Below, one piece after another: positions 6,001 to 9,000 of a stretch of DNA of 45,470 nt. Position numbers: made by a program. Origin of the DNA: a virus (Duplodnaviria > Heunggongvirae > Uroviricota > Caudoviricetes); the IMG/VR virus record IMGVR_UViG_2537562188_000009, positions 1 through 45,470 of that record, one strand, 5' to 3'. Position 1 is the first letter of the stretch; each line of letters begins with the position of its first letter.

Positions 6001-9000
6001 CTGTTGGTGTACGGCCACACCACATCCGACGGGCGGTCCTGAACGAACGTCAGCGTCTGGCCGTTCCATACCGGCATACAGCGCATCGCCGAGCAGAAAT
6101 CCCCCAGGACATCCCAGACCTTACGCTGCTGTGACAGGTACGCATTGAAAGTCATCCGCGGCTCTGTGCCCCCGAAACCATCCGGGACCGTCTGGTCGCA
6201 GTACTGCCCGATGGCATACAGCGCCCACTTGTCCACATCCGCGGCCCCCAGGCGTTTTCCCATCCCGTAGCGCGGGTGGGTCAGCATGTCCCACAGGCAC
6301 CAGGCCGGGTTATTGCTGTATGCCGGTTTCAGACTCCCGTCCCAGATACCGCTGTAGGTGCGTTTTTCCGGGTCATAGTTTGACGGCACCTGAATGATGC
6401 GGCCGCGGATATGGTAGTTCACCACCATCTGCTGGCCACCGAACTGCTCCGCATCCACCTGCAGCCCCACAATGGCCGTGTTCGGGTAGCACTGTTTCAC
6501 ATCGATGATTTCGGTGTATGACGACCACAGCGTTCTGTTCTGCAGCTGGTCCGTGGTGCTGTCCGCCGTCACCCTGACCATCCGGATGTTAAAGGGGCGC
6601 TCAGGGAGATTATTCAGAATCACCGACGTCAGGTACTGCGAGGTGGTCTTGCCGTTAATGGTGACATCCTTCTCCGTCACCCAGTTACCGTTACGCTCAA
6701 GCTGAATCAGCAGCCGGACAGAAGAGGGATTACGGTCACCCTTTGAGGTGGTCTCCACCAGTGACTGCACCCCGAAGGTGACCCGCAGACGGTCAATGTT
6801 CGCTGACGTGATGGTGCGCGTCACCGGCTTTGCCTTCGTCACCTCCACACCCAGTGCGGTTTCCGCCCCGGAGGACTCAAAGCCTTCAGGCGGTGTCTGC
6901 TCCTGCTCCCCGGCACGCCAGACGGCGGTCACACCGTGTATCACGGGATTACCGTCCGTGTCCGTCAGCGGGGTTTTGTTCACCAGAATACTCTGCAGTC
7001 CCTTCACCGGACCTTCCACCGGTCCCTCACCAATGGCATCAATCACGCTCATCATCTGCGTGGATTTGAGATTGTCCTTCGCCTCACGCGGTGTGTGCCC
7101 CTTGCCGCCCCCTTTACCCACTCTGTCCCCCTCTCCTGTCTGATGTCTGAATCTGTTTATGCCCAAAAACAACAGGCACCCCGGAGGGTGCCTGTGTCAT
7201 GACGGAATAAAATTTCTGAAATTCTTCACATTTTTGCAAAATCCTGGTTGTGCTTATAATTTCTCTGCGTTACCGTTTTTTGCCGTGGCATAATAATTCC
7301 TTAAAGTTAATCTTCGTATCTCTTCCCGCAGCCGCCGAGCACTGCGGGATTTTTTTATTTTCATCCCCGCCCGATAACCACCACTTTCCCGTCACCGCCC
7401 TCATCACGGGTGCTGATGTCCTGGGATATCCGTCGTGAACCAACCAGCATTTCACCGTAAGGCACCGGCACCGGGTTACCCTGGGCAATCATGTTGTCCA
7501 GTGACGAAAAATACGTGTTCTGTTTACCGTTATCCGTACTTTTGTACTCCGGCGTCTTTGCCTTCGGGGCCAGCATCTGTGCCACACCACCCAGTATCAT
7601 GCTGGCACCCAGTGAGAACAGCATCGTGGTGGCAGTCAGCCCTCCGGCACTCAGGGCTGCGCCCCACAACGCCATCGTTGCACCGGCGGTGAAGAAAGAG
7701 CCCACGATGGCTGCAGCCCCCAGCACCACCTGAAAAACACCATTTCCCCCGGCCCCTGCCAGCCTCGGTACAATATGAATCACGGCCCTCCCGCTCAGCG
7801 GTTCATGAAGACGGGCATACACCGCCTCCGGCGCGGTATCCTCACCGGCAATACGTATCTGGTACCAGCCTTCGTTCATCTGACAGCGGAATCCCGGCAC
7901 CTGCTGCGACAGGGCACGGATGGCCTCCGCTGCCGTGTTCACATACAGACTGATGCGGCGACCAAATCGTTGTAAATCCCCGTGAAGGCAGATGCGGACC
8001 AGTGGCGGTGACGCCAGACAGAATGCGTTCGTCGTTGCCATTTTTCAGAATACCTCTCCCGTTTACTCAGTTGTTCAGGTATATGGTGAAGCAGGTCACC
8101 GTTGCCACAGTAAATGGCGGCATGATTCGGCACCGATGAACCAAAGCAGCACAGCAGAATATCGCCTGCCTGTGCACAGGACGGAGACACCCGGTAAAAG
8201 CCGTTTTCCGCCAGGTTGTCCAGGTACAGGTTCTGGCCGTTGCGCCACCAGTCATCCTCACGCACAAAATCCGGCAGCGTTATCCCCGCCAGATGGTATG
8301 CATCCCGGAACAGGGTGTAACAGTCCGTCACACCGTGTTCAAAGCGCCGTCCGGTCAGGTGCGGCACACAGCGGAACCGGTGAATGTCACCCCGGCAGAC
8401 CAGCCACCAGGGCAGGGCACTCTTTATCTGCAGCCGCCGGTCCGCCTCGCTCAGCCAGGGCAGACCACCGGGATGACTGTGGACCAGCGCCACAATCTCC
8501 CCCTGCATCTGTGCCTGCAGCCAGTCTTCCGGTGCAATACGAAAATACGCCTCCGGCTCTGCGGAGATATTCACGCAGGGCTGGTACCGCTCGCCCTCCG
8601 GGGTGCTTATCACGAAGCCGCACGACTCCGCTGGCGCACACCGCCGGGCATGCGCCAGAATCGCTGATTCAGTCTGTGTCATAAAACGGGATTTACTGCG
8701 AAAGTTTATTAATGGAAAGGAAACCGCCGAAATTAGCCACCATGCCGCGCATCTCACACCCGCGCATGCATTTACTGCATCTGTCCTTCCGGATATCCGT
8801 GGTGGGGTTGTCGAACTCATCCGCCACTGCCGGACCGTTATACCCGCATTCATCGCCCCGGTAATCCCACATACAGGTGTTCGCCAGCATGATGCGACCG
8901 GGAAACAGCACACCGTCCGTCTCCGTCGGTGTCGCCAGCACAAACGAGGCCGTCATGGCCGTCAGCGCTGACATCTGCTCCACCACCCAGCGGTCCGTCA

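Follow-up and report, generated by a model that had tools for sequence, protein, structure and literature searches.

The question raised by this locus is why two adjacent tail genes of a lambdoid prophage, I and J, are set well apart, and what the DNA between them encodes. The window analysed, a 45,470-nucleotide caudoviral sequence (IMG/VR record IMGVR_UViG_2537562188_000009), is a lambdoid STEC prophage whose tail operon lies on the minus strand. The tail assembly gene I occupies positions 7361-8041 of that strand (226 aa; TGA stop at 7363-7361 in the ORF list); identical DNA is annotated as "tail assembly protein" in RefSeq genomes, and the gene aligns with the 3' end of gene I of E2348/69 and Sakai. 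Gene J (tail tip/host specificity) spans 3426-7121 on the same strand, in frame with an ORF at 3426-7172, and begins with a GTG (7121-7119) preceded by the Shine-Dalgarno sequence GGAGAGGGGG at about 7135-7126, its N-terminus matching the beginning of λ J (atgggtaaaggaagcagtaagggg...) and the annotated gpJ start of E2348/69. The spacer, which the first-pass annotation had estimated at about 240 bp, extends from 7122 to 7360 (239 nt). The same annotation had stated that I and J abut in λ, which is only roughly true as the λ gap measures 60 nt, and had called the spacer unusual, a description that is valid relative to λ and not otherwise, since complete E. coli genomes with this spacer number in the hundreds. 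In the J 5' leader (7137-7150), a 7-nt repeat that reads TGTCTGA on the plus strand occurs twice, the copy number ranging from 0 to 4 among relatives in an alignment of 65 unique spacers.

The spacer very probably carries a moron-type insertion, a stand-alone gene encoding an Hfq-dependent small RNA (sRNA) of the family to which PasB and EcOnc22-24 belong. The expression of this allele, its start site, its action in trans and its regulator are presumptive. All features previously described for the spacer are present in the window, with small corrections to their coordinates.

The gene would be read on the plus strand, antisense to the tail operon, from a predicted sigma-70-type promoter at 7233-7260. 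A promoter had been proposed here as TTGCAA-15-TATAAT (7234-7260); the site was recovered, with the promoter scan reading it one base shifted as TTTGCA (7233-7238), a 16-nt spacer and TATAAT (7255-7260), 10 of 12 positions matching the consensus and the -35 hexamer being weak (4/6). A single promoter-like site in 1.6 kb, where 0.7 are expected, is not above chance. Over the first 20 kb this site ranks first of the five detected (10 expected).

The predicted sRNA (7267-7356, plus strand, about 90 nt) would comprise a 5' hairpin (7269-7289), a 34-nt unpaired A/U-rich region (7290-7323) with the anti-Shine-Dalgarno-like motifs UUCCUU and UUAAUCUUC, and a terminator hairpin (7324-7349) followed by seven U residues (7350-7356), after which come one A and four T in the DNA. 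The terminator had already been recognised, with the stem placed at 7325-7348 and the T7 run ending at 7360; its presence holds, and the corrected stem pairs 7324-7331 with 7342-7349 (8 bp, 10-nt loop), the terminator ending 5 nt from the stop codon of I. Its folding energy is -15.6 kcal/mol (z = -3.97), a value equalled by none of 200 shuffled sequences, and it escaped the terminator pattern scan for the sole reason that the loop limit had been set at 8. The stem (CCCGCAG/CTGCGGG) is the same in all 48 distinct family sequences, with variation in the loop; no covariation was found in the stem among these 48 sequences, so that the structure is backed by invariance and energy. Consensus folding of the alleles recovered the terminator alone, the 5' hairpin being allele-specific. 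The start of the RNA, deduced from the -10 hexamer, and hence its length are uncertain by about 10-15 nt, because RNA-seq coverage places the published 5' end of PasB some 15 nt downstream of the position expected from the -10.

Support for such an RNA comes from homologous copies of the same locus. PasB (pathogenicity-associated sRNA B) was described in prophage PP6 of EPEC O127:H6 E2348/69 (Pearl Mizrahi et al. 2021, PMC8550237; Zhu, Shabalina & Storz 2026, bioRxiv 10.64898/2026.05.13.724894), where it gives an 83-nt Northern band and depends on Hfq for stability (PMC8550237). The comparison of the wild type with the delta-hfq mutant yielded log2 fold changes of -6.8 and -2.4 for pasB in the DESeq2 tables, and RIL-seq assigned it 37 partners, PasB occupying the second position in about 99-100% of the chimeras that contain it. 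Its abundance was reported to be higher in static overnight LB than in DMEM; this LB being glucose-free, the difference is compatible with control by CRP, without being specific to it. The pasB gene (NC_011601.1, 1466343 to 1466261, 83 nt) is located between E2348C_1436 (I) and E2348C_1437 (J), antisense to both. This I-J spacer can be aligned with that of the window over its full length (84% identical), and the published PasB Northern probe was mapped to the homologous strand and segment. Both loci have the gene between I and J in antisense orientation and agree in promoter position, in upstream block and in their terminator, CCCGCAG...CTGCGGGA-U7, the size being also similar (83 nt reported, about 90 predicted). 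They differ in the -35 region, in the 5' hairpin and in the unpaired pairing region (AAUAAUUCCUUAAAGUUAAUCUUCG in the window, AACAACUCCUUCACAUUGAUCUUCA in PasB), the transcribed regions being 75% identical with a longest common word of 17 nt. The 2026 survey (bioRxiv 10.64898/2026.05.13.724894) counted PasB by BLAST with 28-nt words and, given these values, would probably not count the window copy.

A second group of relatives is formed by EcOnc22, EcOnc23 and EcOnc24, RNAs of about 85 nt that are crosslinked to Hfq and destabilised in its absence in EHEC O157:H7 Sakai (Tree et al. 2014, PMC4104026, Table S2), which could be placed in the I-J spacers of the Sakai prophages Sp15, Sp14 and Sp11, respectively. 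EcOnc22 is an RNA of about 85 nt that crosslinks to Hfq and is destabilised in a delta-hfq background (PMC4104026). The coordinates in Tree et al. refer to an older version of the Sakai genome, with an offset of +137 to +146 as measured with AgvB; read without this correction, they would move the Hfq peak onto the hairpin on the late-operon strand (see below), a placement ruled out by the Northern probe, whose sequence targets the body of the sRNA. For EcOnc22/23/24, the peaks of Hfq-CRAC as well as the target of the Northern probe lie within the I-J spacers on the strand opposite to the tail genes, the EcOnc22 probe target being found on the antisense strand in loci L121 (2375-2397), L122 (1306-1328) and L123 (1356-1378). 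An end-to-end alignment was also obtained between the window spacer and its counterparts in Sakai Sp11, Sp14 and Sp15, and the window RNA is 76% identical to EcOnc22-24, with the locus, strand, upstream block and terminator stem in common; the -10 (AATAAT in EcOnc22-24, TATAAT in the window), the 5' hairpin and the pairing region differ. No paper was found that links the names PasB and EcOnc22-24, and Table S6 of the PasB paper gives no EHEC homologue of PasB (PMC8550237). Identity with AgvB or with Esr41, both suspected at first, was rejected, AgvB being located 3' of PR' and Esr41 on SpLE1.

Membership of the window copy in this family does not depend on pairwise identities alone. A covariance model (R1) constructed from 18 sequences of other alleles, with the window allele left out, matched the window at 7267-7358 on the plus strand with 71.6 bits (E 1.2e-10) and along its whole length (model positions 1-98 of 98), and the unit occupies the I-J spacer on the strand opposite to the late operon, as PasB and EcOnc22-24 do. 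These results support the view that the window I-J spacer holds a new sequence variant of the known PasB/EcOnc22-24 family, and the earlier proposal of a noncoding antisense promoter-terminator unit of about 90 nt gains support from the experiments performed on the homologous copies. Annotation resources are silent about it: PasB and EcOnc22 have no Rfam model, the spacer is unannotated in RefSeq, and a search of the whole window against Rfam at gathering scores gave nothing in the spacer, nor did any match reach a gathering score in a permissive search of 6900-7600, where the best hits were at chance level. The AgvB model (RF02702) likewise found nothing in the window spacer while detecting the positive control, AgvB of Sakai Sp10.

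The family is diverse. The I-J site accommodates at least six allele groups, 74-77% identical to one another, in one to four tandem copies, and in all 120 related loci the sRNA gene is antisense between I and J, even when two to four copies are present. The window allele is rare: among 5,426 complete E. coli genomes, just 23 have a copy that is at least 99% identical, the PasB allele occurring in 960 of the same 5,426. Strains with the identical allele include E. coli RM10466 and 00-3076. Such a cassette site, with its six or more alleles and its one to four tandem copies, has apparently gone unreported so far.

What these cassettes have in common, besides the terminator, is a nearly invariant block upstream of the promoter (7197-7233, plus strand), which contains the dyad TCTGA-AATTCT-TCACA (7215-7230). 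This block recurs ahead of every tandem cassette in the relatives and does not vary across alleles despite their differing core promoters. The half-sites of the dyad are exact in 158 of 158 cassettes, the central N6 existing in seven variants, and nearly all 158 have a -10-like hexamer exactly 24 nt past the dyad, which is also the distance of the window TATAAT. The predicted promoter of the window sRNA is, at the sequence level, at the conserved family position and preceded by the conserved block, and within the window this dyad is the sole match to the block and to TNTGA-N6-TCACA. When the block was searched in 185,579 species-representative genomes, 38 matches were obtained, about the chance number for 18 fixed bases, all in unrelated taxa and none in Enterobacteriaceae. 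This absence suggests that the family is limited to the accessory genomes of Escherichia and Shigella, in agreement with the 2026 survey (bioRxiv 10.64898/2026.05.13.724894).

Judging from its sequence, the dyad is a candidate transcription-factor site of CRP-like type. CRP-dependent promoters carry TGTGA-N6-TCACA, with the centre of the dyad at -41.5 in class II and at -61.5 or similar positions in class I. In TCTGA-AATTCT-TCACATTT, 9 of the 10 CRP core positions match, with an invariant C replacing the contacted G (TCTGA instead of TGTGA), and the centre of the dyad, at about -44.5 from the deduced start, lies upstream of the class II position by about 3 bp. The presence of this invariant CRP-like dyad, TCTGA-N6-TCACA, ahead of each cassette appears not to have been reported before.

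The spacer contains a further element, an intrinsic-terminator-like hairpin on the late-operon (minus) strand at 7162-7195, 41 nt upstream of the J start, with the sequence ACAGGCACCC-TCCG-GGGTGCCTGT followed by TGTTTTT. It had been noted as a perfect 9-bp hairpin with a U-rich tract (7160-7194) that could attenuate or structure J expression; the hairpin stands, whereas the terminator scan gives a stem of 10 bp (7 G-C pairs, 7195-7172) with a 4-nt loop and the tail TGTTTTTGGG reaching 7162. It folds with -24.4 kcal/mol (z = -4.7) and is kept in 120 of 120 related loci, with a compensatory double change in L115 and a G.U intermediate in L014. Since λ has an equivalent hairpin and U-tract at the same junction, within its 60-nt gap, the element is not part of the insertion. 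In sequence terms the predicted structure, a GC-rich stem-loop plus UGUUUUU, conforms to the pattern of an intrinsic (Rho-independent) terminator, and the other strong terminator-like sites of this strand nearby likewise coincide with gene boundaries, those following J and the next gene. It is most likely an ancestral element of the I-J junction, which would cause intrinsic termination of RNA polymerase not modified by Q or stabilise the 3' end of its transcript; it would silence J in the lysogen, with Q-antiterminated late transcription reading through. A strong terminator within an essential late operon would be costly unless antitermination were efficient.

The proposed mechanism for the sRNA gene is as follows. 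Host RNA polymerase would start at the sigma-70 promoter, under probable control exerted via the conserved upstream dyad, and would be stopped by the gene's own intrinsic terminator (7324-7356) short of gene I. The resulting RNA, with its 5' hairpin, its unpaired middle bearing the anti-Shine-Dalgarno-like motifs and its Hfq-binding hairpin-U7 3' end, would most likely work in trans in the lysogen, regulating host and accessory mRNAs through base pairing with Hfq as chaperone. As the alleles differ mainly in the pairing region, their target sets are probably different. A duplex scan of the unpaired region against the 438 translation-start regions of the window gave a best energy of -20.8 kcal/mol, equalled by 24 of 100 shuffled seeds, and provided no target lead.

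The position of the gene, rather than its sequence, is what is conserved across alleles, and this agrees with a different explanation in which the RNA acts mainly in cis, either by pairing with the I-J part of the late transcript (leading to RNase III cleavage or to blocked coupling) or through head-on collision of its promoter with late transcription, thereby tuning or delaying J much as λ OOP does with cII. The perfect complementarity of the RNA to the intercistronic I-J stretch of late mRNA, the antisense placement in all 120 loci regardless of copy number and the closeness of the terminator end to the I stop codon point in the same direction. However, the RNA overlaps neither the I coding sequence nor the J ribosome-binding site or start, the latter lying 146 nt from the predicted sRNA 5' end, and λ has no cassette, which shows it to be dispensable for tail assembly. 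Moreover, PasB is expressed in lysogens whose tail genes are nearly silent (in E2348/69, baseMean values of 5-15 for I and J versus 480-1080 for pasB) and meets its 37 trans partners on Hfq. A predominantly cis role is compatible with action in trans but, as the main function, is considered unlikely.

There is a much smaller chance that the spacer is inert, a recombination scar or decayed moron from which this allele makes no functional RNA. The chance-level promoter match in the 1.6-kb scan, the rarity of the allele and the lack of annotation would fit such a remnant, but decay is difficult to reconcile with a perfect TATAAT -10, an intact upstream dyad, a terminator stem and U7 that are intact and identical to those of expressed homologues, and a full-length covariance-model match with no truncation. 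Least probable of all, to the point of being negligible, is that the spacer encodes a small protein, either the 21-aa minus-strand ORF MPRQKTVTQRNYKHNQDFAKM, forming a type I toxin-antitoxin-like pair with the plus-strand RNA, or an upstream ORF translationally coupled to J by overlapping its start: both ORFs exist in the window, the first with an AAGGAA ribosome-binding site and the second with a TAA stop 4-6 nt past the J GTG, but every other allele either lacks the 21-aa ORF or has a different one (in E2348/69 its ATG is directly followed by TGA), its AAGGAA is the reverse complement of the sRNA UUCCUU motif, and it is hydrophilic and unconserved where a type I toxin requires a conserved, usually hydrophobic ORF, for which reason that system was rejected, while the upstream ORF has no Shine-Dalgarno sequence and its frame survives neither a 1-nt indel found in the L006 allele group nor the changes in 7-nt repeat copy number. 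The earlier remark that no ORF lies between promoter and terminator holds in the relevant sense, as mechanical ORFs exist on both strands and none is conserved across alleles.

Returning to the reading of the spacer as a self-contained gene for a trans-acting sRNA, a plain inspection for promoter and terminator would have recovered a genuine regulatory RNA gene that annotation has missed, RefSeq and Rfam being empty here. The added value is modest in that separately named experimental sRNAs, PasB and EcOnc22-24, are united as alleles of one locus, to which the tandem arrays of up to four cassettes can be added, and the conserved operator offers a direct handle on the signal that switches these RNAs on. 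A broader and tentative proposal, which may well prove wrong, is that the I-J junction in lambdoid prophages of pathogenic E. coli is a dedicated recombining sRNA cassette site, filled with one to four tandem genes. These would belong to six or more allele groups with identities of about 75% between them, sharing the operator TCTGA-N6-TCACA, possibly bound by CRP or a CRP-like factor, and the terminator, and differing in their pairing regions. PasB and EcOnc22-24 would then be two alleles and the window a third specificity, and a prophage could swap or stack regulatory specificities under one common signal.

Known phage elements offer several points of comparison. The λ morons lom and bor have their own promoter and terminator and sit between late genes without disrupting them. 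The window element is equally self-contained between late genes, although it encodes an RNA and not a protein. It also resembles the λ OOP RNA, both being short antisense RNAs extending from promoter to terminator within a phage operon, but only OOP overlaps a coding region. A further parallel is that of the anti-sRNAs AgvB and AsxR and of other moron sRNAs from EHEC prophages, which, like the family described here, are prophage-encoded, Hfq-binding and expressed in the lysogen from a fixed lambdoid position (Tree et al. 2014), and form families that combine a conserved 3' part, about 42 nt long in AgvB and AsxR, with a variable pairing part. They differ from the window sRNA in their site, downstream of PR' instead of within the tail operon, in their length of 51-60 nt and in their unrelated sequence.

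A small-RNA gene already known from prophages is present, in a further copy, on the plus strand of the spacer between tail genes I and J. The window represents a lambdoid prophage from Shiga-toxin-producing E. coli; across 281 bases round the spacer it is 100% identical to chromosomal DNA of 16 or more complete genomes, O91:H21 and O113:H21 among them, and there the genes on either side are annotated as "tail assembly protein" and "gpJ phage attachment tail tip protein J". The tail operon occupies the minus strand, with gene I corresponding to ORF 7361..8041 and J starting at a GTG codon (7121-7119), as do lambda J and the annotated gpJ of E2348/69. 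The spacer (7122-7360), which the first-pass annotation gave as about 240 bp, measures exactly 239 nt. Just 5' of the J Shine-Dalgarno lies a 7-nt repeat (7137-7150; plus-strand TGTCTGA, read as UCAGACA in the leader of J), whose unit length is no multiple of three and which is present in two copies in the window, none in E2348/69 and four in the related loci L011, L052 and L068.

The promoter-like site of the unit, previously read as TTGCAA-15-TATAAT (7234-7260), is present as TTTGCA-16-TATAAT at 7233-7260 on the plus strand (10/12 matches in the promoter scan). One promoter-like match in 1.6 kb is not above chance; the site is the top one in 20 kb, where only five such sites were found versus ten expected. 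The proposed plus-strand terminator was confirmed as a hairpin (7324-7349) followed by U7, with a fold of -15.6 kcal/mol (z = -3.97). The predicted sRNA extends over 7267-7356 (plus strand), its start being placed from the -10, and is predicted to fold into a short 5' hairpin whose loop is U-rich, a middle 34-nt unpaired A/U-rich stretch (AUAAUAAUUCCUUAAAGUUAAUCUUCGUAUCUCU) and a 3' part made of the terminator hairpin and U7 tail. As modelled, this three-part fold is the usual architecture for Hfq-dependent base-pairing sRNAs.

The first homologue, PasB, was discovered in EPEC E2348/69 by Hfq RIL-seq, confirmed by Northern blot and shown to depend on Hfq for stability; it is an 83-nt RNA encoded on the minus strand of NC_011601.1 (1466343 to 1466261), between E2348C_1436 and E2348C_1437 (Pearl Mizrahi et al. 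2021, PMC8550237). In the RefSeq record these plus-strand genes encode the tail assembly protein (end at 1466255) and gpJ (start at 1466496), so that PasB runs antisense to them within the I-J spacer. The window and E2348/69 spacers align end to end with 84% identity, the published 3' end of PasB falls on the last U of the shared U7 run, and the probe published for PasB matches the homologous terminator. The other homologues are EcOnc22, EcOnc23 and EcOnc24, three homologous Hfq-crosslinked RNAs from the EHEC Sakai prophages Sp15, Sp14 and Sp11, of which EcOnc22 ran at about 85 nt on a Northern blot and lost stability without hfq (Tree et al. 2014, PMC4104026). In each of the three Sakai regions the Hfq peak lies in the I-J spacer, antisense to the tail genes. 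The 2014 coordinates (Table S2) refer to an older version of the Sakai genome and are about 137-146 nt below those of NC_002695.2 at AgvB; with the offset of +137 to +146 taken from this landmark, the peaks sit on the predicted RNA body. Uncorrected, the same coordinates would wrongly place them on the J-proximal hairpin. The location on the sRNA body is settled by the EcOnc22/23/24 probe (GGGAGAGAACGATGAAGATTAAC..., garbled beyond its first 23 bases in the text copy), which in each of the three spacers targets the antisense strand at a distance of 184-206 nt from the J start. The table of the PasB paper enters no EHEC homologue of PasB (PMC8550237), and no paper linking the two sets of names was found in the literature; PasB and EcOnc22-24 are equivalent, a link that may merit a short follow-up. 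The RNA of about 90 nt proposed in the first-pass annotation is thus backed by Northern-detected, Hfq-linked homologues at the same locus.

The window RNA shares 75% identity with PasB and 76% with EcOnc22, and PasB and EcOnc22 share 74%. A covariance model based on 18 sequences from other alleles, with the window allele left out, matched window positions 7267-7358 over its full length (71.6 bits, E 1.2e-10). At 99% identity or more, the window allele is found in 23 of 5,426 complete E. coli genomes and the E2348/69 allele in 960; no RefSeq feature is annotated under either, and no Rfam model matches the spacer. The features of the first-pass annotation are thus all confirmed, and its main interpretation, an antisense small-RNA gene, is supported in the form of an unannotated, divergent allele of an experimentally detected family, a family already known and a member that is unsurprising to a specialist. 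In other parts of the prophage there are Rfam matches that exceed the gathering score, all on the minus strand (27604-27816, 36868-36955, 36980-37056 and 29225-29473), to STnc100 (158.7 bits), C4 antisense RNA (83.6 bits) directly adjoining isrK (65.3 bits), and three consecutive tRNA genes. A weak second match of the covariance model (24677-24789, plus strand; 17.6 bits, E 0.32) rests mainly on a hairpin and U7 terminator (CCACCAG...CTGGUGGAUUUUUUU); it is probably just another intrinsic terminator, possibly belonging to another small transcript.

The best-supported mechanism is that of an sRNA that would be made in the lysogen and act in trans, chaperoned by Hfq, because the homologues bind Hfq and require it for stability (PMC8550237, PMC4104026) and, in the RIL-seq tables, PasB forms chimeras with 37 partners, nearly always as the second RNA, which is typical sRNA behaviour. 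The discoverers of the Pas sRNAs state that these pair with transcripts of both core and accessory genes (PMC8550237); in a scan of the window for targets, no candidate stood out from shuffled controls. Cis-antisense action on the late I-J transcript would account for the fixed locus, but we consider it improbable, as the RNA overlaps neither coding sequence nor the J ribosome-binding site and its homologue PasB is expressed while the tail genes are nearly silent. That the spacer is an inert scar is unlikely given its intact, perfectly conserved signals. A small protein encoded in the spacer fails as an explanation, since the ORFs are not conserved across alleles and the apparent ribosome-binding site of a 21-aa minus-strand ORF is simply the UUCCUU motif of the sRNA in reverse complement.

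The sense-strand hairpin noted before J is also present (minus strand, 7195-7172, followed by UGUUUUU with the tail reaching 7162), with a stem of 10 bp instead of 9 (-24.4 kcal/mol, z = -4.7). It lies outside the repeated cassette unit, one per spacer and always adjoining J, and is kept in all relatives. In the related locus L115 it carries a compensatory double change (GGCATCC...GGATGCC for GGCACCC...GGGTGCC), of which L014 has the single-change intermediate (C to T, plus strand). The latter would form a G.U wobble if the plus strand were the RNA and an A.C mismatch on the late-operon strand, a single observation from which the strand whose fold is selected cannot be distinguished. Lambda I and J, said earlier to abut, do so only nearly: their 60-nt gap (NC_001416, 15445-15504) itself holds a hairpin, ACCGCC-UGCG-GGCGGU, followed by UUUUGUCAUUU, a terminator-like element on the sense strand at the same junction. 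Its position outside the cassette, its conservation and its lambda equivalent argue that the hairpin is an ancestral element of the junction and not part of an insertion. The other strong sense-strand terminator-like sites of the region likewise mark gene boundaries, one following J (3407-3388) and one the gene beyond it (2629-2600). On sequence grounds, the simplest interpretation of the hairpin is as an intrinsic terminator, which would halt unmodified RNA polymerase in the lysogen and be passed by Q-modified polymerase in lytic growth; the hairpin may also stabilise the 3' end of the upstream mRNA. Downstream, inside the long minus-strand ORF 624..2582, three copies of a 17-nt hairpin-like sequence, GGGATCACCTTTATCCC, each followed by CTTTTG, lie 108 nt apart (915, 1023 and 1131; 915-1147, plus strand), which suggests that the gene downstream of J and lom contains a tandem repeat of 108 bp (36 codons).

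A search with an exact 20-mer taken from a conserved portion of the spacer retrieved more than 119 IMG/VR prophage contigs, and 65 unique I-J spacers were aligned. Three elements hardly vary: the hairpin next to J, a block that ends in TTTCTGAAnTTCTTCACATTT, and the terminator stem, which is unchanged in 48 distinct sequences with a variable loop. The core promoter, 5' hairpin and unpaired region vary, forming at least six discrete allele groups in which the unpaired-region motifs AACUCC/AAUUCC-U (anti-Shine-Dalgarno-like) and UUAAUCUUC recur. Some relatives carry two, three or four whole tandem cassettes between I and J, each with its own upstream block, a -10-like hexamer exactly 24 nt on, RNA body and terminator. 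The cassettes of such an array are of different alleles. One example is locus L066 (7616-8431); further arrays are those of L026, L047, L051, L052, L093, L099, L103 and L105, with two or three cassettes in L003, L020, L028, L035, L046, L088 and L091. The window and 119 relatives together hold 158 cassettes in 120 loci (one in 102, two in 7, three in 2 and four in 9). No earlier report of such arrays was found in the literature. A 2026 survey described PasB as the least variable Pas sRNA, with a minimum inter-copy distance of 28 kb (Zhu, Shabalina and Storz, bioRxiv 10.64898/2026.05.13.724894); as its search used a 28-nt word size and its copies lay no closer than 28 kb, it did not see the divergent alleles or the arrays.

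Within the upstream block (7197-7233), 24 nt upstream of the -10, lies the dyad TCTGA-N6-TCACA (7215-7230), a candidate operator that every allele shares. Both half-sites are exact in 158/158 cassettes (one mismatch permitted in the count), whereas the intervening six bases occur in seven versions and the next 24 nt are also variable; invariant half-sites around a varied N6 are the hallmark of a site bound by a dimeric protein. The arrays of allelic cassettes and the invariant candidate operator are side results perhaps worth a short follow-up. The higher level of PasB in static overnight LB than in DMEM is compatible with control by CRP, of which it is no proof. Compared with the CRP consensus TGTGA-N6-TCACA, the family dyad agrees at nine of ten core positions, but it has an invariant C where CRP contacts a G, and its centre lies near -44.5, not -41.5.
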